Shown piece by piece: positions 29,256-44,231 of a stretch of DNA of 51,415 nucleotides. The stretch is from an uncultured Spirochaetaceae bacterium (GTDB taxonomy: Bacteria; Spirochaetota; Spirochaetia; DSM-27196; PWMO01): contig CAZVXU010000002.1 in assembly GCA_964631585.1 (NCBI GenBank), positions 1-51,415 on the forward strand, read 5' to 3'. Position 1 is the first letter of the stretch, and every line of letters starts with the position of its first letter. The notes beneath the pieces were generated by a model. The model saw only the letters and a list, made by a program, of their open reading frames with translations, did no database searches and was not told the origin of the DNA. Made by a program: the position numbers and the translations under genes.

Positions 29256-30173
29256 TCAAAGGCTGCTGACCGAGACCTCCATCCACCACGATATGGAGCC
29301 GCCCGGCGGCAGCCGTGGAAGACGCCCGAGGCGAGCCGCCGCCGACAATGTGTCCATGGGGGCGGAAGCGGGTTCGATCGCGAGGTTCCTGTGGCCGAAC
29401 AGCCCGCCTGCGTTGCACCACACGCCGAACCACGGCGTAACCGCGGGGTCAGCCCGCACCGAGATGCCGAGTTTCGCCTCGGGGTTGAGAAGGGTGAGCG
29501 CTGCGGTGGGGTCGGTGTTGGGACGCTCGAAGAAGTACTTCATCGCAACACCGCTCTCGGGATCGGGAAGGACGTCGAGCTCGGGTCGGCGGCCGGGATA
29601 TCGATAGAGGCGATCATAGCCGCGCATGGCCGGGGAATCGTAGGCGTTTCGTACCCTGTCCCAGCCCGGGGGTGCGACAAGCCGGTTCCCTTTGCCGAGG
29701 GCAAAGAGCGGGTGAGCAGCCCACATCCACGGCAAGTCATTATCGCCTCCGTTTTCCAACCGGTACTCGTTGCGGACGGTGGCTCCCGTCAGGATGGTGG
29801 TGCGGGTCAGGCGGTATGGAAACGCCTCGCCGGTTACTTCAAGCGTGATCCGGGGCGCATCATCCGTTTCGATGACTTCCACCACCTGCCAGGGAAGGGT
29901 CCATACTTCGCCGTGGTCCGGTACGATCATACGAGTGCCGCTGGTGTCCTCGAATGTCTCCGCACCGATAGCCGGAAACATTTCGTCCCATCCCCAGGCC
30001 TGAGAGGCATCGAAGGCCACCGACGGATCCCCGGTGAGGCGAGTGTCCGCCGGCGACGTTGCCGGTTGCCATAGAAGCTCAGCGCGATTCGACTTGTGCC
30101 AGAGGCTGGATGTTTTCGCTCCGCGCTTCGGCAGTATGGTCAAGCGAAGGTCCCGACTCTCGAGAACGTGCAT
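29256..30173 (-). CDS. aldose 1-epimerase (galactose mutarotase-like) family protein
   Basis: 305 aa. Mutarotase-like features: ...DEMFPAIG..., VPDHGEVW, WAAHPLF, IEPASAP. It lies 7 nt downstream of the DUF5107 gene. Confidence 0.65.
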   Translation of the reverse strand: MHVLESRDLRLTILPKRGAKTSSLWHKSNRAELLWQPATSPADTRLTGDPSVAFDASQAWGWDEMFPAIGAETFEDTSGTRMIVPDHGEVWTLPWQVVEVIETDDAPRITLEVTGEAFPYRLTRTTILTGATVRNEYRLENGGDNDLPWMWAAHPLFALGKGNRLVAPPGWDRVRNAYDSPAMRGYDRLYRYPGRRPELDVLPDPESGVAMKYFFERPNTDPTAALTLLNPEAKLGISVRADPAVTPWFGVWCNAGGLFGHRNLAIEPASAPMDTLSAAARLGRLPRLPPGGSISWWMEVSVSSL

Positions 30174-30180
30174 CGTCCCC

Positions 30181-33100
30181 TCAATCTCGCGGTGCGGTCG
30201 CTTCCCGCATGTAGATCGCAGTAACCGATCCGTCGTTACTCGAGCTGCTTCGAAGCAGCTCCGCTGCGAAATGTGCTCCGGCGTTACCAGGGTCCGATCC
30301 CAGTATCAGATTCAGGTTGCTATCCGCCACTCGGGGCCGCCCCAATCCCCACTCGCCGAGCGCCCACAGGTAGAGACAGAAACGCCGATTGCGCTCGTCG
30401 AGATCCTCCTCGAACACGAGAAAATCGGGCAGGGACACTGCGAAGTAGTCGATCTGAATGTCGTCATCCAGATGGGTCTCACCGTAGTCGCGAAGACGAT
30501 GCAGCAGGCGCCGTGCATTGGTCTCGTTCCCGAGCAGACGCCAGGCGAGTGCCTGGTAGAAGATGGCGTCGGCAGGGCGATCGTTGTAGTAGAAGGACAT
30601 TTCGGGCGCCTCTTCTCCGCGTGCTGCTGCACGAAGCGCGGCCTCGCGCGAGGTCTCGTCGCCGAGTGCGGCATGCGCGCATGAGAGCCAGAAGTCGATC
30701 TCATTGTCGGCCTCCGCAGTCGGGAGCTTTCCCTCTCCGAGATTTCGCGGATAGACCTTCGCCGCCTCGAGTCGATCGATTGCGTCGTGTGCACCTCCGG
30801 CGTCCAGGTCCGCCCGGGCCATCTGAATCAGTGCTCGCTTATACTGTCCCGGGACCTTGCCCTCGCCTCCTTCCCAGGGATGAAACCGGTGCGTCGACAG
30901 CACCTCGAGGGCCCGCTCCGACCGGCCGGTGAGGTTGAGAAGCTCGACATACGAGACGGTGAGGTCGTCGCGTGTGAATATCGTGTCCGCATGTCGTTCC
31001 AGTATTTCCAGACGTTCGGATGGGCGGCGGCCCAGGCGTCGCATCAGCACGTCCATCTCCAGAATGATCTCGGCATCCCCCGGGGCGAGCGACAGGGCGA
31101 GCTCGAGCTCGCGGTGGGCCTCCGCGGGATCGCCGCGCTTGTTGTAGTGGCTGAGGGCCAGATTCCGGTGCACAGTTGGAAATGACGGAGCCTCTGCGGC
31201 GGCCTGCACCCACTGTTCGTGCGCTCGTGCATGAGCACCCGCGGCGAAGTAGTAGTTGCCGAGCTCGTAGGCCGCCATGGGCGCCGGCGCTATTTCCCGG
31301 GCGACGTGCAGCACCGGTATCATCTCCAGCTGATTGGGGAAGGAGGCTCCCCGGGCGCAGGCTTCCGCCTCCGATACGGTTTGTTCTGCTGCGGCCGGCT
31401 TGCCGAGCTCGTGCTGATACACCGCTTTGACGTAGAGGGGCAGAGGATCGAGTTGATCCGTTTCCTCGGTGTAGCGGTTCACGAGCTCGATTGCGTCCTC
31501 GCGGAATCCGGAATGCCCGTAGGCGAACAGGATTTCGCAGAGAAGCTGCGGCTTGCCGGAGAGATACTGTGGCCATTCGCCCGGCCAGGTCTGAAGCATG
31601 CGTTCGGTCTCCGCGAGGTGGTTGACCGGAAAACGCTCGAGGCTTTCGCGGTTTCGCTCTTCCGCTTCGGTGCTTCGGCCGAGTTTCCGCAGAATGACGG
31701 TGCGCAGATGAGAGGCACGGAAATGAGCCGGATTGGTGGCCAGCGCCGTTTCGAGGTGTCCGAGCGCCTCCCCGAGCACTCCCCGCGAGGCGTCGATGCG
31801 CGCCAGGAAGAACGAGCTCTCAGCCCTCAGCGGCATGTTCCACGCTGATTTGGAGAACCAGTCGTACGCCTCGAGCTCCCGACGCCGGTACCAGAGTGCG
31901 AGGCCCAGATTGAACAGCGGCTCGCCGCCGTACGGATTGGGGTTCCGCTCCAGAAGACGGGCGCACGCGGTGCGGAACAGCCGCTCGGCAGCCGTAAAAT
32001 CCCCCTGCTTGAGCCTACGGAGCCCGAGGGCATTGTTCGCGCCGCTGTGTCCGGCATCACGCTTCAGTACCTCATGGTAGTAGGGCTCCGGGGAAAAGGT
32101 CGCGTGGCGGTACTGCTCGATATGGCGCCCCCAGAGGAAAAGCTCCTCGGTGGCGGCGATCCGGGCAGGTGGTGGCGCCGCCTCCGCCGGCTTTGCAGGG
32201 GGACGCTCGCCTTCGGCTGCAGCCGGGTAACGCAGGAGCTCCGCACCCGTGGTATCGCAAAGGCGAAAGGTACAGGCCTCGGGGTGTTTCAGGTTCTTGA
32301 CGGTCCGGCTCGCGCCGGCGGCCGGAGAGAGAGTCAGCTCTTGCTGCGCCTCCACCACGCCGTCACGCTCGATACGTACCGTTACCGCGAGCTCTTCAGT
32401 TGCGTAGAGGTGTACCACGATGCGCCCCTGGTGACTTTCGGAATCGAGAGCCAGAACCACTCGCTCCGATGCGGCCTTCACCGGCATGGCGCCTTTGAAG
32501 GGAAAGAAGTACTGCGTGAAGCGCTTCTCTTCGCCGGGCTGCAGCCAGGAGAAGTCCGGCTGGTTGTCGGTGTAGACGCCCGTCATGAGCTCCACGTAGG
32601 GACCATCGTCATCGGTGAGGTTGCGCTCCCAGGCCTGTCCGAAGTCCGCCGTGCCCCAGGTCCACATCTTCTTCCCCGGCGAGACGTGGTGATCGGCAAC
32701 ATGCAGGATGCCCGCCTGCCGCCCGTGGTCGTAGCCGCCCACGAAGTCATAGTCACTGTGGTATGCCATGTAGGATGTCGGTACCGGCACGTTCTTGTAC
32801 CAGGAGATATCCACTCCGCGGGAGTAGTCGACCTTGTAGTACTCGCCGGTTGCTACCGGAAACCGCGACAGATCCCGCTTGCCGTGGTCGAATACCGCCG
32901 TCACATCGGGCGGGAAGACCGCCTGATAGTCATCGTTGACGCTGACAGCCGGATTTGCCCACCACAGGAAGGTTTGCGGCAAAGGTGTGGGGTTGTAGAC
33001 CCGCCCGTTGATTTCGAGAACTGCTCGGTCGGGATACAGGCGGAAGCCGGCGGCGCTTCGCGTGCGAAACATCTTCTCCCACTCGGATACCCACACGGTC

Positions 33101-33537
33101 ACCGACCCATCGTCTCCGTGACGGATCTCGTACTCTGTCGGCGCAAAGGTTGACGGGCGGTGGTGCTGCGGCCAATTGAACTCGATACCGCCGGAAATCC
33201 ACGGGCCCGCGAGTCCCACCAGTGCGGGCTTGATCACCCGATTGTAGTATACGAAGTGGTAGTCATTGGTCTTGTCCAGCGCCATTTGCACCCGACCGCC
33301 GAGCTCCGGGAGGATCATGATCTTCAGATACCGGTTCTCGAGGAATACGGCGTCATATGACTGCGGCCGAGGTTCATCGGCAACTCCGTGGATCATGCGG
33401 TAGGGATACACCGCGCCGGAGCTGCCCTGGTACACCCGCTTCTCGAGAAACATCGGGTTGTCGTCCGGCTCCGCGGTGGGATAGGTGGGAATGGTGACGG
33501 TTTCGTTCCATGCTTCGGCCTGTTCTGCACGTCTCAT
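30181..33537 (-). CDS. DUF5107 domain / TPR-repeat protein
   Basis: 1118 aa with no signal peptide. The N-terminal ~330 aa (PMFLEKRVYQGSSGAVYPY...GPWISGGIEFNWPQHHRPSTF) matches what I recall of DUF5107. The C-terminal ~600 aa is helical and TPR-like. Confidence 0.7.
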   Translation of the reverse strand: MRRAEQAEAWNETVTIPTYPTAEPDDNPMFLEKRVYQGSSGAVYPYRMIHGVADEPRPQSYDAVFLENRYLKIMILPELGGRVQMALDKTNDYHFVYYNRVIKPALVGLAGPWISGGIEFNWPQHHRPSTFAPTEYEIRHGDDGSVTVWVSEWEKMFRTRSAAGFRLYPDRAVLEINGRVYNPTPLPQTFLWWANPAVSVNDDYQAVFPPDVTAVFDHGKRDLSRFPVATGEYYKVDYSRGVDISWYKNVPVPTSYMAYHSDYDFVGGYDHGRQAGILHVADHHVSPGKKMWTWGTADFGQAWERNLTDDDGPYVELMTGVYTDNQPDFSWLQPGEEKRFTQYFFPFKGAMPVKAASERVVLALDSESHQGRIVVHLYATEELAVTVRIERDGVVEAQQELTLSPAAGASRTVKNLKHPEACTFRLCDTTGAELLRYPAAAEGERPPAKPAEAAPPPARIAATEELFLWGRHIEQYRHATFSPEPYYHEVLKRDAGHSGANNALGLRRLKQGDFTAAERLFRTACARLLERNPNPYGGEPLFNLGLALWYRRRELEAYDWFSKSAWNMPLRAESSFFLARIDASRGVLGEALGHLETALATNPAHFRASHLRTVILRKLGRSTEAEERNRESLERFPVNHLAETERMLQTWPGEWPQYLSGKPQLLCEILFAYGHSGFREDAIELVNRYTEETDQLDPLPLYVKAVYQHELGKPAAAEQTVSEAEACARGASFPNQLEMIPVLHVAREIAPAPMAAYELGNYYFAAGAHARAHEQWVQAAAEAPSFPTVHRNLALSHYNKRGDPAEAHRELELALSLAPGDAEIILEMDVLMRRLGRRPSERLEILERHADTIFTRDDLTVSYVELLNLTGRSERALEVLSTHRFHPWEGGEGKVPGQYKRALIQMARADLDAGGAHDAIDRLEAAKVYPRNLGEGKLPTAEADNEIDFWLSCAHAALGDETSREAALRAAARGEEAPEMSFYYNDRPADAIFYQALAWRLLGNETNARRLLHRLRDYGETHLDDDIQIDYFAVSLPDFLVFEEDLDERNRRFCLYLWALGEWGLGRPRVADSNLNLILGSDPGNAGAHFAAELLRSSSSNDGSVTAIYMREATAPRD

Positions 33538-33617: not shown

Positions 33618-34535
33618 ATGCTTGCCGTCATGGACCGGCTCGGCTCAGGGCCGCGAAAGCCGCACGGCTTCAGCGGAGAGATCTACCAGATCGTGCCTCA
33701 TCGTGTGCGGGGCGACTTGCGGTCCCGCCCGCTTACTCACGAATTGGCGGTCACCGATATCGGACGGTATCCCCGGGCATACGGCCACTTCTACCGCAGG
33801 CGAAGCGGGGCGGAGGAACACATCCTCATCGTCTGCGATTCCGGCTCCGGATTCTGCAAAACAGCCACCGGGTCCCTTCTCCTCGGCCCGCGGCAGTTCG
33901 TTCTCATACCGGCAGGCACCCCGCACGAGTATGGCGCCGACGATGATGACCCCTGGACGATTTCATGGTGCCATTTCACGGGCGTCTACGGAGACATCCT
34001 CGTGCAACGACTCCCGCTCACCCGGGCGCCGTACAGCATTGCCCCGCTCACCGAAACCGAGGCACACGGACTGTTCGAGCCGGCGTTCGACGTGATGAAG
34101 CGCGGGTTTTCGCTGGAGCACCTGACGGTCGCCTCGGCCCTCATTCGGGCCGTCCTTACGGTTCTCGCCTTCGACAATCCGGCCCTGGAAGTCGGCTTCG
34201 ATCGCCTCGGAAACAGGTACGTCGAGGCCGCTGTCGAGTACGTCAATCGAAATCTGGACAAGGCGATGAGCGTGGACACGATAGCGGATGCAGTCGGTCT
34301 TTCGGCTTCACGGCTCACGCAGTTGTTCCGTCGCCATGTGGGGCAGTCGCCGAAACGTTACGTACGCCGCGAGCGCGTATTGCGTGCGTGCCACTACCTG
34401 GATGCTACCGATGCTCCGATCTCTCAGGTGGCGGAACTGGTGGGATACGCCGATCCGTTGCACTTCTCGCGAGTGTTTCGTCAGGTGCTCGGTCGCTCGC
34501 CCCGTCAGTATCGGGCGCGGGAGCCGGCTTCATAG
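33618..34535 (+). CDS. AraC-family transcriptional regulator (cupin sensor plus HTH)
   Basis: 305 aa. The N-terminal AraC-type ligand-binding barrel is followed by two HTH motifs (MSVDTIADAVGLSASRLTQLFRRHVG and ISQVAELVGYADPLHFSRVFRQVLG). Confidence 0.88.
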   Translation: MLAVMDRLGSGPRKPHGFSGEIYQIVPHRVRGDLRSRPLTHELAVTDIGRYPRAYGHFYRRRSGAEEHILIVCDSGSGFCKTATGSLLLGPRQFVLIPAGTPHEYGADDDDPWTISWCHFTGVYGDILVQRLPLTRAPYSIAPLTETEAHGLFEPAFDVMKRGFSLEHLTVASALIRAVLTVLAFDNPALEVGFDRLGNRYVEAAVEYVNRNLDKAMSVDTIADAVGLSASRLTQLFRRHVGQSPKRYVRRERVLRACHYLDATDAPISQVAELVGYADPLHFSRVFRQVLGRSPRQYRAREPAS

Positions 34536-36327
34536 GCAGTACGACGTTGAAGGCGGTGTCTCCCGGTCTGCTGCGAAAGGTGATCACGCCCTCGTGCAGG
34601 TCTACGATGTGCTGGCACACGGCAAGGCCGAGCCCCGTGTTCGTCTTCGTGACTTTGGTGCTGAAAAAGGGCTTGAAGATATCGTCCTGCAGATCGGCCG
34701 GAATTCCGTGTCCCGTGTCCGAGATCGAGATCTCCACCTGACCGGTGTCGTGGTCCTCTTCCACGGTTAGCTTCAGAACCCCGCCGTGGAGCATGGCCTC
34801 TATCGCATTGGCGATCAGGTTGACGAAGAGCTGCTTGAGCTTGTTCTCGACGCCGTCAACATAGACCGGGCGGCCGGGAACGTAGCGGCTTACGGTTATC
34901 TGTTTGTCGCGGAGACGGTGGCCTACGAGAAGCACCACCTCATCGAGCAGACGAACCACGTCGACATGGCGTATGGGCAGCTGTTTTACTCGGGAGAATG
35001 AAAGCAAACTGCTTACCACTTCGGTGATAAGATTCACCTCGCCCTCGATTCGTTCGAGATATCCGGCCTGTTCCTCCGCTTCGTCGTTGACCTTGAGAAG
35101 CTCGAGATAGTTCTGGATAATCCCGAGGGGATTGTTTATCTCATGGGCCACGCCCGCTGCAAGCTCCGCGATCGAAGTCATCTGTTCCGCCCGCGCGAGA
35201 TACTCCTTGACGAGGTCATCCATCAGCACGTTTTCGATGAAGAGAATGGTTCCGAGAGCCGTCCCCTCGTAGTTTTTGATGGGGTGACATGCGAGCCGTA
35301 CCTTCCGATCCCCGGCAATCGGGACGCTCTCCCACGTGCGTGCGTCGCGCCGCTGCACCGCCGCGTGAATATCTTCCTGGTTACCTATGCCCAGATGGTG
35401 CAGAAGCGCTCGGAGCTCCGTTTCTCCCGGCTGTAGGTTCGGGTACTGCAGTAACTTTTCCGCCTCGGTATTTACCGCGAATACCCGCGTTTCGGCATCC
35501 AGTACGATGGCCGGGATTGGAAGATTCCTGATGAGCTGGTCGTTCTGTCGCCGCAGGTAGAGTGGGGCCCGATCGTCGTCGCCGTCTTGAAGGTAGGAGG
35601 TGAACTCGTAGGCCATTCGGACCAGACGTATTCTATCGAGATCACTCACACGTTCCGTTCCGATACGCTCCCCGTCTCTCAGCACGGTTACACGGTCCGC
35701 AAACTGGAATATCTCCTCGATATCCGGCGTTACAAACAGAACCGCTTTCCCGTTGGCCTTGAAGTCGGAGAGCAGGGCGAACAGCCGTTTCAGGCGATGC
35801 GGTTTGAATCGCGATGATATCTCATCGAGGATGAGAACATCCGGGTCCCGTGCCATTACGCGGACGAGCTCGATGGCCTGTTGCTGCTCCTCGGAGAGCG
35901 TTCGCAACGGTGCGTCAAAGTCGATGTCGAGATCGAGGCGGTCCAGCAGGTCACGGCAGCGGTTTCGCAGTCGGTTCTCATCCTTCCTGCGAATGATCAG
36001 CCGGTTGAGGTTGCCCACCGTCATATTGCGCCATGCGGTCAGTGCCGGCATGACCTGCAGGCGCTCCTGTATAAGTGCCACCCCGGCCTGGCGGGCACGA
36101 CGCGGTGTAAGCGAGTCACGCGAAGCTCCCTTCAGCTCGTAGGTGCCCGCCTGCATCGGCTCGATCCCGCCCGCAACGTGAGCAAGCGTCGATTTTCCGG
36201 ATTTGTGGTCACCGATGAGTGCATGTATCTCTCCGGCATACAAATCCAAATCGACCCCGCGGAGCGCGGTGTTCTCGCCATAGCTGTGTGTCAGCCCGCG
36301 CAGTCTTAGTAGAAGCTGCGGTTTCAC
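34405..36327 (-). CDS. cytoplasmic sensor histidine kinase with an N-terminal ABC-transporter ATPase-like domain (ABC_tran - PAS - HisKA - HATPase_c)
   Basis: 640 aa with a GTG start overlapping the regulator stop (GTGA at 36324-36327). There are no TM helices. Residues 1-245 align along their whole length with the N-terminal half of the AraG encoded at 39005. A PAS-like region follows, then the H-box AAGVAHEINNPL and N/G boxes (NLIANAIEA, DTGHGIP, GLGLAV). Confidence 0.85.
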   Translation of the reverse strand: MKPQLLLRLRGLTHSYGENTALRGVDLDLYAGEIHALIGDHKSGKSTLAHVAGGIEPMQAGTYELKGASRDSLTPRRARQAGVALIQERLQVMPALTAWRNMTVGNLNRLIIRRKDENRLRNRCRDLLDRLDLDIDFDAPLRTLSEEQQQAIELVRVMARDPDVLILDEISSRFKPHRLKRLFALLSDFKANGKAVLFVTPDIEEIFQFADRVTVLRDGERIGTERVSDLDRIRLVRMAYEFTSYLQDGDDDRAPLYLRRQNDQLIRNLPIPAIVLDAETRVFAVNTEAEKLLQYPNLQPGETELRALLHHLGIGNQEDIHAAVQRRDARTWESVPIAGDRKVRLACHPIKNYEGTALGTILFIENVLMDDLVKEYLARAEQMTSIAELAAGVAHEINNPLGIIQNYLELLKVNDEAEEQAGYLERIEGEVNLITEVVSSLLSFSRVKQLPIRHVDVVRLLDEVVLLVGHRLRDKQITVSRYVPGRPVYVDGVENKLKQLFVNLIANAIEAMLHGGVLKLTVEEDHDTGQVEISISDTGHGIPADLQDDIFKPFFSTKVTKTNTGLGLAVCQHIVDLHEGVITFRSRPGDTAFNVVLPMKPAPAPDTDGASDRAPDETLARSATDRRIPPVPPPERSEHR

Positions 36328-37637
36328 GAGTTGATACCGAGACGCTTCATTTTGTTGTACAGAGTCTTGCGGTGCATGCTCAAGAGCGCGGCGGCCTCGC
36401 TCTTGACGCCGTTACACCGTTGCAGGGCCCTCAGAATCATCTCCCGGTTGACGCTGTCGTGCAGATTGTTCATACGGTCGTCGAGCGTATCGGAGACCTG
36501 CTCGTACTGTTGCGGCAGATCGTTCTCACTGACGTAGCGGGCATCGCAGAATATGACTGCGCGCTCGACGGCGTTCTTTAGCTCGCGAATATTCCCCGGC
36601 CAGCTGTGGTTGAGAAAGACACGCATAACCGAATCGGTGAAGCCGACGACATCCCTCTCGTACAGGGTGGCGAACTTGTCGAGAAAATGCTGGGCCAGGA
36701 GCGGAATGTCGGTCCGCCGCTCTCTCAGAGGAGGCAGCTCCAGCTTTACGACCGACAGGCGGTAGTACAGGTCCTCGCGGAAGCTGCCGTCGCGTATTGA
36801 AATCTCCAGATCCTTATTCGTTGCGGCGATGATTCTCACGTCGGTGGACCGGGTTTCGTTGGAGCCGAGCCGCTCGAACTCGCCCTCCTGTAGCACCCTC
36901 AGAAGCTTTGCCTGGGTGACCGTGCTGAGCTCTCCGATCTCGTCGAAGAACAGCCCGCCACCCGCGGCGGCTTCGAACTTCCCGACGCGCGTGTCCTTCG
37001 CGTCGGTGAAAGCGCCCCGCTCGTGCCCGAAGAGCTCGCTCTCCAACAACGCGTCCGGTATGGCGGCGCAGTTGACTTTGACCAGCTTGCGTCCGGCCCG
37101 TGCACTGCGGGAGTGGATTTCGCTTGCAACCAGCTCTTTGCCGGTTCCGCTCTCCCCCACGATCACGACCGACACGTCGGTGGCTGCTATGCGGGTGATT
37201 TCCTCTATCAGACGGTGCATGCGGCTGTCGCGCGTTATGATCTGTCCCGTCGGCGCGGCATCCTTACGCTGAGCCTTGCGCGTCTTTAGAGTCTCGATTT
37301 CCTCCAGCAGGTCTTTCAACGGAACGGGCTTCTGATAAAAGTTGCGCGCCCCCACTCTCATTGCCTCGACGGCATGCTCAATGGTCGCCACGCCGGAGAT
37401 CATGATGACGGGCAATTCGGGTCGGATCGCGCGCACCCGCTGTAGGAGCGTCAACCCGTCGAGTCGCGGCATCTTCACGTCGAGAACGAGAAGGTCGAGA
37501 TCCGTTGAGTTGAGCATTTCGACGACACGGGCCGGCTGAGTCGTATAGAGGCTGCGCAACCCGTTTCGATCCAGGAGAGCCTGGAGCGATCTGCACATCT
37601 CCTCCTGATCGTCAACTATGAGGACCGTGAAATCCAT
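36324..37637 (-). CDS. sigma-54-dependent response regulator (NtrC family: REC - AAA+ - Fis-type HTH)
   Basis: 437 aa. Receiver (LIVDDQ, LLVLDVKMP). AAA+ domain with GESGTGKE, the GAFTGA-type loop ERGAFTDA and Walker B LFFDEIGEL. C-terminal HTH: AAALLSMHRKTLYNKMKRLGI. Confidence 0.92.
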   Translation of the reverse strand: MDFTVLIVDDQEEMCRSLQALLDRNGLRSLYTTQPARVVEMLNSTDLDLLVLDVKMPRLDGLTLLQRVRAIRPELPVIMISGVATIEHAVEAMRVGARNFYQKPVPLKDLLEEIETLKTRKAQRKDAAPTGQIITRDSRMHRLIEEITRIAATDVSVVIVGESGTGKELVASEIHSRSARAGRKLVKVNCAAIPDALLESELFGHERGAFTDAKDTRVGKFEAAAGGGLFFDEIGELSTVTQAKLLRVLQEGEFERLGSNETRSTDVRIIAATNKDLEISIRDGSFREDLYYRLSVVKLELPPLRERRTDIPLLAQHFLDKFATLYERDVVGFTDSVMRVFLNHSWPGNIRELKNAVERAVIFCDARYVSENDLPQQYEQVSDTLDDRMNNLHDSVNREMILRALQRCNGVKSEAAALLSMHRKTLYNKMKRLGINS

Positions 37638-37844
37638 GGTGGGAGCAATTGTAGAGGCAAAATCTCAGGCGGGCAACCAGTAATTGGAATCGACGCACTG
37701 TGGAATTTTTTGCACATGTGGCGTGGCGGCCGTAACGTCGTTGCACAGTGAATGCCGAATCATCAGACCGCACCGAGTCTCATGAGGGCGCACAACGTAC
37801 GATGACACAGCAAGTTGGCCGTCGGATTGCCGTCTCGGTGGAAC

Positions 37845-37859
37845 TGGCACGTACTTTGC
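37845..37859 (+). promoter_or_regulatory. sigma-54 (-24/-12) promoter TGGCAC-N5-TTGC upstream of araF
   Basis: TGGCACGTACTTTGC has a GG-N10-GC spacing that matches the consensus exactly. It lies 36 nt upstream of the araF ATG (37895) and is divergent from the NtrC-type regulator. Confidence 0.82.
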
Positions 37860-37894: not shown

Positions 37895-38908
37895 ATGAAA
37901 CGACTACTGGTTTTTGTGTTGATGATCGCGATCGCGCTCGGCGCCGCGATGCCGCTGTTTGCTTCGGGCGAGCAGGAAGCTTCGTCCGGCGATGATGTTA
38001 AAATTGGGTTTCTGGTGAAGCAGCCGGAGGAGACCTGGTTTCAGGATGAGTGGAAGTTTGCAGAAGAAGCTGCCGATGACTACGGCTTCGATCTCGTAAC
38101 GCTTGGCGCCGAGGACGGAGAGGTCACCCTCAACGCCATTGATAACCTGGCCGCGCAGGGCGCAGACGGATTTATTATCTGCACCCCGGACGTACGGCTC
38201 GGGCCTGCCATCGTGGCACGCGCTGAGCAGCATGGAATGAAGGTCATGAGCGTCGACGACCGTTTCGTCAATGCGGACGGCGAATTCATGGAAGACGTTC
38301 CCCACATGGGTATCTCGGCCTACGAGATCGGACAGATCGTCGGTGACGCACTCTACGAAGAGATGCAGAACCGCGGCTGGGACGTAGAGGACACGGGTGC
38401 TCTCGCCATCAGCTTCAACGAGCTCGACACCGCCCGTGAACGCGTCGAGGGCGCAACGGACGCGCTCGTGGACGCCGGATTCCCCGCCGAACGCATCTTC
38501 GACACACCGCAGCAGCGCGAAGACGTGGAGGGCGGCTTCAACGCCGCGGCCGATACGATCACCCAGCATCCCGACATCGAGCACTGGCTTGTGTTCGCTC
38601 TCAACGACGAGTCGGTGATGGGCGGCGTGCGCGCGGCCGAGGGACGGGGTTTCACTGCAGAAGATATCATTGGCGTCGGGATCGGCGGCAGCGGGTCGGC
38701 CCAGTCGGAGTTCGACAAGGACGAGATGACCGGCTTCTTTGCGACCGTCACCATTAGCCCCTACCGCCACGGGTATGAGACCGCAGAGAACATGTACAAG
38801 TGGATTGCCGAAGGTGAAGACCCCGAAAGGCTCATCTACACCGCCGGCACGCTCATGACCCGCGAAAACCAGGATGAGGTGCTTTCGGAGTTGGGTCTCG
38901 ATCGATAA
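37895..38908 (+). CDS. araF: L-arabinose-type ABC transporter periplasmic binding protein
   Basis: 337 aa with a signal peptide. There are long collinear matches to E. coli AraF as I recall it (GFLVKQPEE-WFQ-EWKFA, LNAID-LAA-GA-GF-ICTPD, MQ-RGWDV, NELDTAR-R, VRA-EG-GF-A-DIIG-GI-G). Confidence 0.8.
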   Translation: MKRLLVFVLMIAIALGAAMPLFASGEQEASSGDDVKIGFLVKQPEETWFQDEWKFAEEAADDYGFDLVTLGAEDGEVTLNAIDNLAAQGADGFIICTPDVRLGPAIVARAEQHGMKVMSVDDRFVNADGEFMEDVPHMGISAYEIGQIVGDALYEEMQNRGWDVEDTGALAISFNELDTARERVEGATDALVDAGFPAERIFDTPQQREDVEGGFNAAADTITQHPDIEHWLVFALNDESVMGGVRAAEGRGFTAEDIIGVGIGGSGSAQSEFDKDEMTGFFATVTISPYRHGYETAENMYKWIAEGEDPERLIYTAGTLMTRENQDEVLSELGLDR

Positions 38909-39004: not shown

Positions 39005-40531
39005 ATGGGCGATCAACCGTATCTACAGTTTCATTCGGTAAGCAAGACCTTCCCCGGCGTGCAGGCGCTCGATGATGTCACCTTCGGTGTGGCCGAAGGG
39101 AGTGTCCATGCCCTCGTCGGAGAGAACGGGGCGGGCAAGTCGACCCTGCTGAAGGTTCTCAGCGGGGCTCATCAGCCGAACGGCGGCTCGCTCTCGCTCG
39201 GAGGTGTCGAGCACGCCTTCTCCAACGCTCGTGAGGCGCTCGAAGCCGGGATAGTCGTTATCTATCAGGAGCTCAACCTCATCCCCGACATGAGTGTCGA
39301 GGAGAATCTGCTTCTCGGCCACATGCCGACCCGCCTCGGGGTCATTGACAGGCGGGACATGCGAGCACGGGCATCTGAGGCGCTGCAGCGACTCGGAGAA
39401 CCGATCAATCCGAGAGCGAAAATGCGGAGCCTGTCCATCGGGCAACAGCAGATGGTGGAAATCGCCAAGGCGCTCATGAGAGATGCCAAGGTCATCGCGT
39501 TCGACGAGCCGACGAGCAGCCTCTCTCACAAGGAAGTCGAGCTCCTGTTCAACGCCATTCGTGGCCTTCGGCAGGACGGGCGAGCCGTAATCTACGTGTC
39601 TCATCGTCTGGCCGAAGTCTTCGAGCTCTCTGATGCCGTCACCGTCTTCCGGGACGGAAAGCTCGTCGCTACGCGGGACACGCTCGAGGGCGTAGATCAC
39701 GACTTTCTTGTCAAAAGCATGGTGGGCAGGTCGATTGCGGACATCTTTCACTATTCTCCGCGTCCCCACGGGGAGACAGTGCTCGAGGTCAAAGACTTGT
39801 TCGGGTACGGGTTGAGAGAACCGGTCTCGTTCAGCGTGCGAAAGGGCGAGATCCTCGGGTTCTTCGGGTTGATCGGCGCCGGTCGAACCGAGTTGTTTCG
39901 TCTTCTGTTCGGAGCGGAGCGCGCGGAGGGCGGTACGACGTCTGTGGAGGGTACGCCGGTCCGGATCAGAAACACGCATGATGCCATACGCCATGGGCTC
40001 GCACTTATGCCGGAGGATCGTAAACTACATGGTATCATCGGTGTAAGCTCGGTGGCGGAGAACATCAACCTCGCCGTCCGGCCGACGCTGGCCTCCTACG
40101 GGGGGCTCGTCATAGACGAGCGCCGCGAGCGCGAGAACGCCGACGCATTCGTAAAAAAGCTCAGAATCAAGACGCCGTCGACGCGACAGCTCATGAAGAA
40201 CCTCTCCGGCGGTAATCAGCAGAAAGCGATCCTCGCACGATGGTTGAGTCGACATGCCCGCGTATTTCTCATGGACGAGCCTACGCGCGGAATCGATGTG
40301 GGAACCAAGAGTGAAATCTATTCAATCATGTACGATCTCGCCGAATCGGGTCTGGGAGTCGTTATGGTCTCGAGTGAGTTGCCTGAGATTCTCGGCGTGT
40401 GCGACAGGATCATTGTCATGAGAGAGGGTGCCATTGCCGGTGAGGTGTCGCGAGACGAGGCAACGGAAGAGCTGCTCTTGAAGCTCGCACTCCCCGACCG
40501 CGTAGGCGACCGGACTGCCCGAACGGCATAG
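39005..40531 (+). CDS. araG: L-arabinose-type ABC transporter ATP-binding protein (duplicated ABC domains, CUT2 family)
   Basis: 508 aa. Two ABC cassettes: GENGAGKST / LSIGQQQ / FDEPTS in the first and LSGGNQQK / MDEPTRGID in the second. Confidence 0.85.
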   Translation: MGDQPYLQFHSVSKTFPGVQALDDVTFGVAEGSVHALVGENGAGKSTLLKVLSGAHQPNGGSLSLGGVEHAFSNAREALEAGIVVIYQELNLIPDMSVEENLLLGHMPTRLGVIDRRDMRARASEALQRLGEPINPRAKMRSLSIGQQQMVEIAKALMRDAKVIAFDEPTSSLSHKEVELLFNAIRGLRQDGRAVIYVSHRLAEVFELSDAVTVFRDGKLVATRDTLEGVDHDFLVKSMVGRSIADIFHYSPRPHGETVLEVKDLFGYGLREPVSFSVRKGEILGFFGLIGAGRTELFRLLFGAERAEGGTTSVEGTPVRIRNTHDAIRHGLALMPEDRKLHGIIGVSSVAENINLAVRPTLASYGGLVIDERRERENADAFVKKLRIKTPSTRQLMKNLSGGNQQKAILARWLSRHARVFLMDEPTRGIDVGTKSEIYSIMYDLAESGLGVVMVSSELPEILGVCDRIIVMREGAIAGEVSRDEATEELLLKLALPDRVGDRTARTA

Positions 40532-40552: not shown

Positions 40553-41518
40553 GTGTCCACCATGTCCACAACATTTTCCGCAGCTTCCATTGGCAAGATC
40601 TGGCGCAACTCCGGCATGCTGATGGTCTTCCTGATCCTCTTCGCGATCCTCTCCCTATTCGTTCCGTTCTTCTTCACGTGGCGGAATATGGTGGGGCTGT
40701 CGCTCTCCGTTGCAACCCTCGGCATGGTCGCCTGCACCATGACTTTTGCGCTCGCCTCCGGCAACTTCGATCTGTCGGTCGGATCGATCGTTGCATTCTC
40801 GGGCGTCGCCGCCGCCGTCGTCATAAACGTCACCGGCAGCACGTTGCTCGGAATTCTTGCCGGATTGGCCGGAAGCATGATCATCGGTTTCGTGAACGGC
40901 ACGGTCATTGCGAGACTGAAGATCAACGCGCTCATCACGACCCTGGCGATGATGCAGATCGTGCGCGGGCTTGCCTTCATTGTCTCCGGCGGTAGCGCGG
41001 TGGGTATTCGCAACGCCGACTTCTACGTACTCGGCACCGGAACATTTGCCGGCCTCCCCATGCCGATCTGGATCGTTATCGGGTACTTTTTGGTGTTCGC
41101 GTTCATCCTGAACAAGACGACCTACGGCCGCAACACGCTCGCCATCGGCGGTAATGAAGAAGCCGTGCGACTGTCCGGCATCAACGTCGATCGGATCAAG
41201 ATCGCCATATTCAGCATTCAGGGCCTGATGACGGGGTTTGCCGGTATCGTGCTCGCCGCCCGCATGACAAGCGGACAGCCGCACACGTCGCAGGGATTTG
41301 AGCTCACCGTAATATCGGCATGTGTGCTCGGCGGTGTTTCACTCTCCGGTGGTGTGGCATCGATGACCGGAGCGCTCGTCGGTGTGCTGATCATGGGGTC
41401 CGTACAGAATGCCATGAATCTGTTGAACACACCGACGTTCTATCAGTACGTGGCGCGGGGCACGATTCTCCTGGCAGCGGTCATCTTCGATACCCTCAAG
41501 CAGGGCAAGGTCCGGTAA
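40553..41518 (+). CDS. araH: L-arabinose-type ABC transporter permease
   Basis: 321-aa polytopic protein of the RbsC/AraH-type (BPD_transp_2-like). AGGAGG lies 7 nt upstream of the GTG at 40553. The ATG at 40562 is an alternative start. Confidence 0.82.
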   Translation: MSTMSTTFSAASIGKIWRNSGMLMVFLILFAILSLFVPFFFTWRNMVGLSLSVATLGMVACTMTFALASGNFDLSVGSIVAFSGVAAAVVINVTGSTLLGILAGLAGSMIIGFVNGTVIARLKINALITTLAMMQIVRGLAFIVSGGSAVGIRNADFYVLGTGTFAGLPMPIWIVIGYFLVFAFILNKTTYGRNTLAIGGNEEAVRLSGINVDRIKIAIFSIQGLMTGFAGIVLAARMTSGQPHTSQGFELTVISACVLGGVSLSGGVASMTGALVGVLIMGSVQNAMNLLNTPTFYQYVARGTILLAAVIFDTLKQGKVR

Positions 41519-42199
41519 ATGGCGGAGTGGAATAACGATGATGAGCTCTTCCGCATCGGGCGTGAGGAGCTCTACACCGCCGTCGTCGGCGATATCTGTG
41601 ACCAGCTCGGGATGCGGCGGCGGTTTCTGCCGCCGGAGCTGCGACCGCTGAAGCCCGCGCCCGGCGTGCCGGTCATGCTCGGACGCGCCATGACGGTGCT
41701 CGAAGCGGATGTGTTCTCCGAGCCCGCCGGTGGATCGCCGTTCGGCTCGATGTTGAGCGCCCTCGACGATCTGCGCCATAACGAGGTCTACGTGTGCGCC
41801 GGGGCCAGCCCGCGCTACGCGCTTATCGGAGAGCTCATGGCCACGGCCATGATTGCCAGGGGGGCCGTTGGCGCGGTCGCGGACGGATACATCCGGGACA
41901 GCGAGGGAATCCTCACGCTGGATTTTCCCGTATACTCGCGCGGCTCCTATGCGCAGGATCAACGGGGCCGGGGCATCGTCATGGACTATCGGGTTCCGAT
42001 CGAGATCGGCGGGATCACGATCGAACCGGGTGATATTGTTCTTGCCGACGTGGACGGGGTCCTCATCGTGCCGCAGGAGGTCGAGGTCGAAGTCTTCACC
42101 CTGGCGCTGGCCAAGGCACGTGCCGAGAAGACCGTGCAGAAGGCAATCGCCGGCGGAATGACGGCGACCGAAGCCTTCGATACCTATGGGATTCTGTAA
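41519..42199 (+). CDS. RraA / HMG-CHA aldolase family protein (putative class II 2-keto-3-deoxy-acid aldolase)
   Basis: 226 aa. Family features: GELMATAMIARGAVGAVADGYIRD and PGDIVLADVDGVLIVP. The ATG directly abuts the araH stop (TAAATG). Confidence 0.75.
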   Translation: MAEWNNDDELFRIGREELYTAVVGDICDQLGMRRRFLPPELRPLKPAPGVPVMLGRAMTVLEADVFSEPAGGSPFGSMLSALDDLRHNEVYVCAGASPRYALIGELMATAMIARGAVGAVADGYIRDSEGILTLDFPVYSRGSYAQDQRGRGIVMDYRVPIEIGGITIEPGDIVLADVDGVLIVPQEVEVEVFTLALAKARAEKTVQKAIAGGMTATEAFDTYGIL

Positions 42200-42211
42200 A
42201 GGGGAGCCGCT

Positions 42212-43372
42212 GTGAAGATCACCGATGTCCGCGTATGGCTCGTGGAGGGAATCAAGTACAACTGGACCATGCTGAAGGTTTACACCGACGACGGAGTCAC
42301 CGGCGTGGGAGAGGCTACGAACTGGCCCGGAAGTCCCGTCGTCGAGGCCGCGGCGCGACACGTGGGCGAGCGGGTCATCGGCATGGATCCACTTCGCACC
42401 GACTACGTGTGGTCGAAGCTCTACCGGGACCTCAACTGGATTGGTCCTTACGGCGCCTCACTCTGCGCTATCAGCGGACTCGACATGGCGCTTCTCGACC
42501 TCAAAGGCAAGTACTACGGGCTTCCCGTATACGAGTTGCTCGGCGGCGCCTTTCGCCGGGAGATCCTCCTCTATGCGAATTACTGGTTTACCGGCGGTGG
42601 ACTGAGTGCCGCTGAATACGGGAGCGCCGCGTCCCAGGTAATGCAGGCCGGCTTCACCGGCGTCAAGTTCGACCCCTTCGCCCACACGAGCTACTTTTAC
42701 GGCGATAATCTCGCGCCGAACCTGGGGCTGACCGAGAGCCAGAAGGACCTCGCCGAGGAGGTTGCCGCGGCGGTCCGTGAGGCGATAGGGCCGGAGTCGG
42801 CCATGATGATCGAGACCCATGCCATGCTGAACTTTCAGGCCGCCTGCGAGATGGCAAATCGGCTTTCGCCCTACGGGGTGACCTGGTTCGAAGAGCCCGT
42901 GGGACCTGAAAACGTGGAGACGCTCGCCGCCTTTCGCATGCGAATACCGGCGGAGGTTCCGATCTGTGTCGGTGAGCGACACTACACGCGAAGCGGCATT
43001 CGTCCCGTTCTCGAGCGCCAACTTTGCGATATCATCATGCCGGACATCACACGCTGCGGGGGGCCGAGCGAGCTAAAGCGCATGGCCACTATGGCGGAAA
43101 CCTACGGGGTCCTCGTCGCCCCACACAATCCCAACGGACCCCTGTCGACCCTGGCCAGCGGTCATGTCTGTGCCGCACTGCCCAACTTTTTTCGCCAGGA
43201 GTTCATGTTCCATGATGTGCCCTGGAGGGACGAGGTGATCGACCACCCGCTCGACATCCGAGACGGGCATCTGTACCTGAGCGACCGGTCGGGGCTGGGG
43301 GCTGATCTCGTCGAGGAAGAGCTCGATCGTCATCCCGGTGTCAGGGAGATGCGGGACGGGTTCTACGTGTAA
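42212..43372 (+). CDS. enolase-superfamily sugar-acid dehydratase (galactonate-dehydratase-like)
   Basis: 386 aa with a GTG start. The N-terminal capping domain is MKITDVRVWLVEG...VTGVGEAT. Barrel metal and acid-base positions: VKFDPF, WFEEP, VGER, DIIMPD, APHN. Confidence 0.8.
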   Translation: MKITDVRVWLVEGIKYNWTMLKVYTDDGVTGVGEATNWPGSPVVEAAARHVGERVIGMDPLRTDYVWSKLYRDLNWIGPYGASLCAISGLDMALLDLKGKYYGLPVYELLGGAFRREILLYANYWFTGGGLSAAEYGSAASQVMQAGFTGVKFDPFAHTSYFYGDNLAPNLGLTESQKDLAEEVAAAVREAIGPESAMMIETHAMLNFQAACEMANRLSPYGVTWFEEPVGPENVETLAAFRMRIPAEVPICVGERHYTRSGIRPVLERQLCDIIMPDITRCGGPSELKRMATMAETYGVLVAPHNPNGPLSTLASGHVCAALPNFFRQEFMFHDVPWRDEVIDHPLDIRDGHLYLSDRSGLGADLVEEELDRHPGVREMRDGFYV

Positions 43373-43397
43373 ACGGGCGGGGAAGTGAGGAAGCAAG

Positions 43398-44231
43398 ATG
43401 CCGTTGACAGTTGATCTCTCCGGAAGTGTTACAATCGTCACCGGCGTAACGAGCGGAATCGGTGCCGGCGTTGCCGAGGTTTTTGCGCGAGCCGGCTCGG
43501 CCGTCGTGGGGTGCGGCAGGCGTGGCTCCGAAAGCGAAGAAGCCGCCGCCTTTCTTGAGGCCGCGGAGCGGCGCGGTGCGTCCGCGGAGTATGTCTCGTG
43601 CGACATCTCCGATACTGACGGTCCGGCGAAGGTGGTCGCTGCCGCGGCGGACCGATTCGGGCGCATAGACTTCGTCGTCTCTAACGCCGGGCGAAATGTG
43701 TTTACGGGCATCGATGAGAGCTCCCTCGGGGACTGGCAGGAGTGCATTGATCTGAACCTGCGCTCGCACTGGTTGCTTGCCCAGGCGGTCGCACCACATC
43801 TGCGAGCCGCCGCGAAGGCACCGGTGGCGCCGGACGGTGCGGGGCCGGTGTTCATGGTGAATACCTCGAACCACGCCTATGCAACCATTCCCGGCTGCTT
43901 CCCTTACAACGTCACGAAAGCCGGCATGACGGCGCTTGTACAGTCCCTCGCGATCGAATGGGGCCCACACGTGAGAGCGGTCGGCGTGGCCCCCGGCTTC
44001 ATAGAGACAGAGGCCAACGGCGAATGGTTTGCGAGATTCGAAGACCCGCAGGAAGAGCGTCGGCGCACCGAGGCAATGCATCCGGTAGGTCGGCTCGGCA
44101 CGCCGGAGGAAGTGGGGGCTTTGTTCGTGTTTCTCGCCAGTCGATACGCTGCGTTCGTGACCGGCACCACGATTCTGGCCGACGGGGGGCGAAGCGCACT
44201 CATGCAGGACGGGATGAAAGAATTCGGGTGA
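43398..44231 (+). CDS. SDR-family oxidoreductase
   Basis: 277 aa. TGVTSGIG cofactor motif, NAG, and the catalytic YNVTK (YxxxK). Confidence 0.85.
   Translation: MPLTVDLSGSVTIVTGVTSGIGAGVAEVFARAGSAVVGCGRRGSESEEAAAFLEAAERRGASAEYVSCDISDTDGPAKVVAAAADRFGRIDFVVSNAGRNVFTGIDESSLGDWQECIDLNLRSHWLLAQAVAPHLRAAAKAPVAPDGAGPVFMVNTSNHAYATIPGCFPYNVTKAGMTALVQSLAIEWGPHVRAVGVAPGFIETEANGEWFARFEDPQEERRRTEAMHPVGRLGTPEEVGALFVFLASRYAAFVTGTTILADGGRSALMQDGMKEFG

Follow-up and report, generated by a model that had tools for sequence, protein, structure and literature searches.

A soluble histidine kinase with an ABC transporter nucleotide-binding domain as its input module, encoded beside a CUT2 sugar transporter operon in Spirochaetota

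Two-component histidine kinases normally sense their signals via periplasmic or membrane domains or via cytoplasmic domains of the PAS/GAF type. In a 51,415-nucleotide stretch of DNA from an uncultured Spirochaetaceae bacterium (contig CAZVXU010000002.1; the whole stretch is called here the window), the gene at 34405..36327 on the minus strand, with a GTG start, encodes a soluble kinase of 640 aa in which a nucleotide-binding domain (NBD) of the ATP-binding cassette (ABC) type is followed by a PAS domain and a histidine kinase core. The gene lies beside the operon of a CUT2 sugar transporter.

Several described systems share part of this design. KdpD, a kinase that controls an ATP-driven uptake system, has a cytoplasmic nucleotide-binding input domain with Walker A and B motifs, as the window kinase does, but that domain belongs to a non-ABC fold and family and KdpD is membrane-anchored. 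The sensor domain of SasA is a homologue of a subunit of the KaiB/KaiC machine that it monitors and competes for the same docking site; the logic of a subunit-homologue sensor is alike, whereas SasA has a thioredoxin-like fold and serves the circadian clock, with no transporter involved. In the PstSCAB-PhoU-PhoR system, a kinase receives the activity state of an ABC importer dependent on a substrate-binding protein (SBP) through its cytoplasmic PAS region. The likeness lies in this path from importer state to a PAS region, but PstB is a real motor, PhoU is a separate adaptor and PhoR is membrane-anchored, whereas the window kinase has a built-in NBD copy. AtoS/AtoC, ZraS/ZraR and NtrB/NtrC have a homologous kinase core and regulator, and NtrB is also a soluble PAS kinase governed by protein contact, but none of them includes an ABC NBD.

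In the BceS-BceAB module of Bacillus (PMC4513084, PMC10314905), a kinase without a ligand sensor of its own reads the cycle of an ABC transporter and controls the transporter genes. Unlike the window kinase, BceS is a membrane kinase that touches BceB via transmembrane (TM) helices and carries no fused NBD, and the module serves a peptide-resistance transporter through an OmpR-type regulator that is not sigma-54-dependent. The window locus is not of this type, which combines a two-TM intramembrane kinase with a BceAB-type transporter, given that its kinase has no TM segment and its transporter is an SBP-dependent CUT2 importer. XylFII-LytS-YesN, ChvE-VirA and LuxP-LuxQ (PMC8050422) exemplify two-component control of CUT2-type sugar transporters through sugar bound to a periplasmic SBP, but LytS, VirA and LuxQ are membrane kinases that bind the SBP by periplasmic domains, whereas the window kinase is wholly cytoplasmic. 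None of these analogues has an ABC NBD fused to a kinase, and no description of an ABC-NBD-histidine kinase architecture was found in the searchable full-text literature.

The fused nucleotide-binding domain

The architecture of the protein is directly evident from profile searches. The NBD-like input domain (residues 1-240; 35608..36327, minus strand) matches ABC_tran (PF00005) over residues 22-170 with 69.3 bits, against a Pfam gathering cut-off of 25, and is further supported by its identity to a transporter cassette, by an AlphaFold2 (AF2) model, by Foldseek and by motif tables. It is followed by a PAS domain (residues 263-366; 35230..35541, minus strand), detected by PF00989 at residues 263-364 with 23.3 bits against a cut-off of 22.6 and having a PAS-like fold in the model. 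The kinase core (34528..35217, minus strand) consists of the DHp/HisKA region at residues 371-448 (PF00512, residues 387-448, 51.9 bits) and the HATPase_c catalytic (CA) domain at residues 453-600 (PF02518, residues 493-600, 86.1 bits), both recognized by Pfam, NCBIfam, alignment and Foldseek. The phospho-acceptor H395 and the N, G1 and G2 boxes (N503/N507, D537-G539-G541, G565-G567) are invariant in the family alignment, and the protein has the features of a HisKA-class sensor histidine kinase as well as an NBD that passes the ABC_tran profile. A search for TM-like segments in the kinase (Kyte-Doolittle, 19-residue window) found none, the maximum being 1.48 against 2.87 for the permease AraH. 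The initial annotation, made from the letters and a list of open reading frames (ORFs), had named the same order of domains and a kinase without a TM segment, and on both points it was right. The best NCBIfam model for the core, AtoS (NF008468), gives 205.8 bits against an equivalog cut-off of 646 and covers residues 259-601 only, so that the protein does not qualify as AtoS, and the name 'AtoS' given to members of this family is an over-annotation.

The AF2 model, calculated from an alignment of 20 family sequences, is confident for the NBD (predicted local distance difference test, pLDDT, of about 90) and also for the PAS and catalytic domains, and of low confidence for the linker between NBD and PAS (residues 241-262). 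In Foldseek searches the NBD matched LptB with a TM-score of 0.88-0.89 (0.83-0.89 for the LptB and MacB NBDs taken together), and the remainder of the protein matched PAS/LOV kinases and ZraS, the core being 33% identical to the ZraS cytoplasmic domain structure. The final 36 residues (605-640; 34405..34515 with the stop codon, minus strand) are predicted to be disordered (pLDDT of about 30), and in the alignment this tail is confined to close relatives of the window kinase. A convergent AraC-family gene (33618-34535, plus strand) shares 131 nt at its 3' end with the DNA that encodes the tail, and the same overlap is seen in a locus that is 87% identical (L001, 11778-11923).

The nearest relatives of the input domain are found among the N-terminal cassettes of CUT2 ATPases. 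The window encodes one such enzyme, the two-cassette ATPase AraG (39005..40531, plus strand; NCBIfam equivalog, 762.8 bits against a cut-off of 689). In BLASTP the kinase NBD is 31% identical to the AraG N-cassette over 226 aa (E 1e-35), which supports the alignment that had been noticed by eye, and 23% identical to the C-cassette (E 4e-12). Among NCBIfam models, AraG (NF008442) is also the best for the kinase N-terminus, as a single cassette aligned to AraG positions 6-238 and scoring 152 bits against the cut-off of 689; the AlsA, LsrA, YtfR, XylG and RbsA models follow close behind, all far under their equivalog cut-offs. A CUT2 importer ATPase is recognized by an equivalog score and two fused cassettes, and the kinase has neither. 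As judged from these alignments, a CUT2 N-cassette gave rise to the ABC NBD that serves as the input module.

A neighbour-joining analysis over 240 columns covered 25 kinase NBDs, 49 N-cassettes and 14 C-cassettes. The NBDs of the kinases grouped in one clade apart from the N-cassettes in 298 out of 300 bootstraps, with mean identities of 45% within the kinases, 33% to N-cassettes and 23% to C-cassettes. Moreover, the window NBD is 37% identical to N-cassettes of unrelated genomes versus 31% to its own AraG. Because of this monophyly and of the closer resemblance to foreign N-cassettes, a recent duplication of the adjacent AraG was rejected, and the fusion of NBD and kinase is better regarded as old and single. 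The initial annotation had taken the sensor domain for a paralogue of AraG and expected it to fall within the N-halves of the CUT2 ATPases; homology to a CUT2-type N-cassette stands, but not descent from the adjacent AraG in particular, and the kinase domains lie outside the N-halves as a separate clade.

The NBD motifs of the window kinase are partly degenerate. Its Walker A motif, GDHKSGKST (G39, G44-K45-S46-T47), satisfies the general form GxxxxGK[ST], and the Walker B Asp-Glu pair is D168-E169. These were correctly reported as retained, but the Q-loop Gln, listed with them, was not found in its place: in a position-by-position alignment the canonical position is occupied by E88, with Gln one residue earlier (Q87). 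The signature is LSEEQ and the H-loop reads VTP for VSH, with P201 replacing the His, both as first described, so the window protein lacks the full competent set of LSGGQ, Q-loop Gln and H-loop His. What had been read as a loss of the signature in the kinase is, however, a degeneracy inherited from the transporters. The window AraG N-cassette itself has LSIGQ and CUT2 N-cassettes are broadly LS[VIM][AG]Q, whereas CUT2 C-cassettes have a canonical LSGGNQ together with a degenerate Walker A (Lys to Arg) and lack the H-loop His. Since the N-cassettes are already signature-degenerate, the kinase NBD inherits the asymmetry of the CUT2 ATPases. Features of the kinase family itself are H-R in Walker A (for N-G), DEIS (for DEPT), a D-loop NKLTP, an RxGTE motif and a conserved linker helix; the inner Walker A Gly, present in 49/49 transporter N-cassettes, is Arg or Lys in 25/25 kinases of an earlier sample that was skewed to the window's relatives (Lys in the window kinase).

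Conservation across the family was compared over 61 non-redundant kinase NBDs and 113 transporter N-cassettes. The Walker A Lys and Walker B Asp are invariant, the Q-loop Gln is kept in 95% of the kinases, the catalytic Glu in 97% and the H-loop His in 70%. In no region of the NBD, be it Walker A and B, the Q-loop, the next helix, the H-loop or the C-terminal strands, is conservation lower in kinases than in transporters, and the helix after the Q-loop has a consensus, P..L..ENIF.G, common to both. Mean information is 2.64 bits in the kinase NBDs versus 2.46 bits in the transporter N-cassettes, which on these alignments places the kinase NBD under purifying selection at least equal to that of working transporter subunits. 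The idea that the whole family is hydrolysis-dead was rejected on the residues kept, and by the same residues the window clade (E88, P201) is a degenerate exception, most members keeping the full catalytic set. The reading of the domain as ATP-binding and hydrolysis-impaired in the initial annotation is thus apt for the window clade, where hydrolysis has probably been lost (P201, E88, LSEEQ), but not for the family, most NBDs of which may still turn over ATP.

A two-component module conserved beside CUT2 transporters

The kinase gene is coupled to that of a sigma-54-dependent response regulator (36324..37637, minus strand; REC, Sigma54_activat and HTH_8 domains by Pfam and NCBIfam), the stop codon of which overlaps the kinase start as GTGA. 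The best NCBIfam model for this regulator is AtoC, with a score that, like that of AtoS for the kinase, falls far short of the equivalog level. A sigma-54 promoter element of the -24/-12 type, TGGCACGTACTTTGC (37845..37859, plus strand; TGGCAC-N5-TTGC), lies 36 nt before the araF ATG; no other match to this pattern occurs in the 51 kb, where chance would give 0.08. The locus thus has the regulator domains and the target promoter of an NtrC-family two-component system; both the coupling to an NtrC-type activator and the promoter before araFGH had been noted at the outset. A candidate binding region for the activator is the inverted repeat CACTGTGGAA / TTGCACAGTG (37696..37750, not assigned to a strand), which contains TTGCACA twice and precedes the -24/-12 element by about 100-150 nt. 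We conclude that the regulator and promoter probably switch on the adjacent araFGH-type operon. As a separate observation, the loop that contacts sigma-54 reads GAFTDA in the window regulator and not the canonical GAFTGA; among the family regulators of loci L001-L168 in which the pattern located the loop, GAFTDA occurs in 53/76 and GAFTGA in only 6/76.

The operon begins with a periplasmic sugar-binding protein in the AraF position (37895..38908, plus strand), which has a signal peptide with a hydrophobic N-terminus and matches Peripla_BP_1 with 175 bits; no NCBIfam match at equivalog level was found for it, and it is assigned to Peripla_BP_1 only. AraG is followed by the CUT2 permease AraH (40553..41518, plus strand; NCBIfam equivalog, 472 bits against a cut-off of 378); no second permease of the BPD_transp_2 type was found in the window.

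The family is large. A search over 5.8 billion proteins was limited to the best 120 clusters, all with at least 483 bits, at least 118 of which have ABC_tran, HisKA and HATPase_c, the other two being truncated entries. Their sources are mostly metagenome-assembled genomes (MAGs) of Spirochaetes, in addition to Candidatus Vecturithrix, and the proteins carry the automatic label 'AtoS' or 'ATP-binding cassette domain-containing protein'. A scan of GTDB genomes gave 80 loci, of which eight were family members and the others ordinary CUT2 ATPases sharing the ADRVT motif; these eight full-length loci are all from Spirochaetota, the nearest being 87% identical and from a Spirochaetaceae MAG. A metagenome scan with a Walker A pattern specific for the family yielded 113 confirmed loci, of which 80 were retained.

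Neighbouring genes were classified with home-made hidden Markov models (HMMs) in 97 family loci, and the neighbourhoods on Pfam-annotated family contigs agree with this classification. In 76 of the 77 cases with enough sequence, the gene immediately preceding that of the kinase encodes a sigma-54 regulator, the exception being L085, with a regulator of the REC-AraC type; apparent exceptions to this pairing in L005, L113, L143 and L147 were rejected as artefacts of ORF calling. Regulator and kinase overlap by 4 nt in 37 loci. CUT2 transporter genes occur within 6.5 kb of the kinase in 69/81 loci, the others being mostly short contigs, and the association holds in divergent, co-directional and convergent gene orders. 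Sigma-54 elements, 13 in total, are present just before the transporter operon in 11 of the 12 other family loci scanned (two each in L008 and L081, a weaker one in L084, none in L004), compared with a background of 0.14 per 10 kb in 72 ordinary CUT2 loci. L008 and L081 contain two kinase modules each, every module beside its own transporter, and therefore a transporter-specific rather than a global signal is favoured. About 100 loci share the whole module, and the architecture is common, not rare. The initial annotation knew of no characterised example, and none was found in the literature searched.

Few loci encode a CUT2-type permease without an ATPase. Such a permease and an SBP converge on the 3' end of the kinase gene in L085 (9945-13662, in an operon that also encodes a methyl-accepting chemotaxis protein) and in L169/L170 (10935-13021, an araA/araD/araB locus in which no orphan ATPase was found nearby), a lone permease does so in L153 (11819-12973), and in L082 (14555-16550) a permease and SBP pair lies on the same strand further downstream of the kinase. 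Three of these loci are close relatives, with 86% identity. In L085 and L169/L170 the kinase is partnered with a REC-AraC regulator and not with the sigma-54 type, and the kinase signature of the L085/L169 clade is a canonical LTGGQ.

Beside some other kinases, single-cassette ATPases of 261-285 aa (with LSGGxRQ, DEPT and SH motifs) replace the fused two-cassette ATPase (L108, 9382-12463; L109, 2901-5984; L145, 3398-8553; L084, 1338-6560). In L084 and L145, two permeases and two binding proteins surround one single-cassette ATPase, and the L084 copy looks frameshifted. These lone ATPases were considered as C-type partners of the kinase NBD and rejected, being N-like (204-226 versus 111-126 bits) with fully canonical motifs.

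Some further observations concern neighbouring genes. After araH (41519-44231, plus strand) there are genes for an RraA-like aldolase, an MR_MLE-family dehydratase and a short-chain dehydrogenase (SDR), which suggests an oxidative, non-phosphorylative pathway for a sugar or sugar acid; since the downstream genes point to such a pathway, arabinose as substrate is plausible, not proven. In L083, lactonase, SDR and MR_MLE genes adjoin the transporter. On the other side of the window kinase, the minus-strand region 29256-33537, adjoining the AraC-family gene, encodes a 1118-aa DUF5107 and TPR protein and a DUF4432/aldose-epimerase-like protein; in the distant locus L083, too, the kinase is flanked by DUF4432 and AraC genes. 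In L087 (8001-10556; P0014) the kinase is an 851-aa variant, about 210 residues longer, but its surroundings are typical, the regulator gene lying upstream and an SBP-ATPase-permease operon running divergently. One clade has a 115-aa ORF with weak similarity to NBDs (19-25 bits) between the AraC-like gene and the sigma-54 regulator (L004, 4227-4574; L123, 960-1307; L125, 2502-2849; L142, 360-707), which may be a remnant or a chance ORF.

Possible routes of the signal into the kinase

How a signal would enter the NBD we infer from the nature of the domain and from its gene neighbourhood. The initial annotation had hypothesised docking on AraH, or competition or dimerisation with AraG. Our tentative first choice is a two-component system linked to the transporter, in which the kinase is the sensor and its NBD heads dock on the permease dimer. 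The kinase would dimerise via its DHp helices and so present two NBD-like heads. In the manner of the transporter ATPase, both would bind to the coupling helices on the cytoplasmic side of the CUT2 permease homodimer (AraH in the window). Engagement of the permease by a sugar-loaded binding protein would drive the heads, with ATP bound, together, and their closure would reach the DHp/CA core by way of the conserved linker helix and the PAS domain, shifting the balance between kinase and phosphatase; the phosphorylated regulator would activate the sigma-54 promoter of the transporter operon. In the window clade the NBD would act as an ATP-dependent conformational reader, and AraG, once induced, would compete for the docking sites and provide feedback.

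Several considerations favour docking. The only known partners of a CUT2 N-cassette-type domain are ATP, a second cassette and a permease, and the kinase NBD is a homologue of such cassettes. The kinase has neither a TM nor a periplasmic domain, which leaves no other path for a signal from outside. The regions of the NBD, including the Q-loop and the next helix, are as constrained as those of transporter subunits. The sigma-54 promoters before the transporter operons, the genomes in which each of two modules adjoins its own transporter, and the AraC-type regulator next door, which may already cover sugar sensing inside the cell, also count in its favour. Finally, the link to the transporter is favoured by the conserved synteny and by the few loci with ATPase-less permeases, with or without an SBP, including the clade with the canonical LTGGQ signature. 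In a form that is possible but doubtful, the CUT2 permease dimer with the kinase in place of the ATPase would be a transmembrane receptor, in which docking of the SBP outside causes autophosphorylation inside via ATP-dependent NBD closure. The ATPase-less permeases (L085, L169/L170, L082 and L153) would be pure receptors, and the window AraH would be shared with AraG, so that the output would report both occupancy and the abundance of AraG.

Several points weigh against docking. A complete ATPase is encoded in every typical locus, the window included, which leaves no need for a motor function of the kinase NBD; conservation of the Q-loop is also expected from ATP chemistry alone; and the ligand could in reality be sensed by the PAS domain, which varies most. 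The PDB contains no AraH homologue and no close CUT2 ATPase, and hence no template for the interface. In a mirror-tree test on 29 non-redundant loci, which compares whole domains and is insensitive, the NBD correlated with the permease at r = 0.29, with a partial r of -0.08 given the regulator (p = 0.86), and with the ATPase at r = 0.10-0.11, the lowest of all pairs. The controls gave 0.60 for permease versus ATPase N-cassette and 0.93 for the N versus the C cassette of the ATPase, and the NBD correlated with the regulator at 0.81 and with the kinase core at 0.74. According to these correlations, the histories of the two-component module and of the transporter are largely separate, and the NBD does not track the permease.

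The decoupling of the NBD from permease and ATPase, together with its evolution alongside the regulator and the kinase core, fits with sensing split between two domains, the main rival explanation, which we consider rather unlikely all the same. The PAS domain would bind the imported sugar or a metabolite and the NBD pair would serve as an ATP-dependent dimerisation switch or a gate for adenylate charge, never touching the transporter, so that output would require both the sugar and enough ATP for the importer. The ATP-binding residues are invariant, the H-R in Walker A, the DEIS motif and the changed D-loop suggest a remodelled NBD-NBD interface, and the PAS domain has a mean p-distance of 0.71, the highest in the family, as would be expected for a ligand-specific sensor. 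Among kinases, KdpD already shows that the cytoplasmic input can be a P-loop domain that binds ATP. This explanation, however, accounts neither for the choice of a CUT2 N-cassette as input and the consensus retained in its Q-loop and helical subdomain, nor for the ATPase-less permease genes, some with an SBP, beside the kinase. Co-variation of the PAS domain with the transporter was not significant in the same test (partial r of 0.02 for the permease and 0.12-0.13 for the ATPase cassettes, p of about 0.13-0.41). In addition, an AraC-type one-component regulator, a cytoplasmic sugar sensor, is already encoded next to the kinase (33618-34535, plus strand), so that intracellular sugar sensing may be handled separately.

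It is improbable that the kinase NBD pairs instead with the transporter ATPase, for example in trans with the signature face of the AraG C-cassette, and reports whether the motor is idle or active, as PhoR reads PstB via PhoU. An N-type kinase NBD, with good Walker A and B motifs and a degenerate signature, would in principle complement a C-cassette with LSGGNQ and a degenerate Walker A, but the two cassettes of AraG are covalently fused and pair with each other, the NBD co-varies least of all with the ATPase, and the lone single-cassette ATPases near kinases are canonical N-like homodimer types, not C-type. Last, despite the degenerate motifs of the window clade (P201, E88, LSEEQ), a vestigial or purely structural NBD, with control exerted elsewhere, for example by a partner on the CA domain as PII acts on NtrB, is very improbable in view of purifying selection at no less than transporter level and of the retention of the domain in every family member.

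As far as the searchable literature goes, the use of an ABC motor domain for input to a soluble kinase represents a class that has not been described, and it occurs in an uncharacterised family spread over Spirochaetota and at least one further candidate phylum, to which neither of the current labels, 'AtoS' and 'ATP-binding cassette domain-containing protein', is a reliable guide, both being misleading. If the NBD docks on the permease, as we tentatively favour, this would be the most direct coupling of a transporter to a kinase known, and a tractable system in which the step from SBP binding to NBD closure would be read out as phosphorylation. If it does not dock, the family would still represent a natural ATP-gated kinase.

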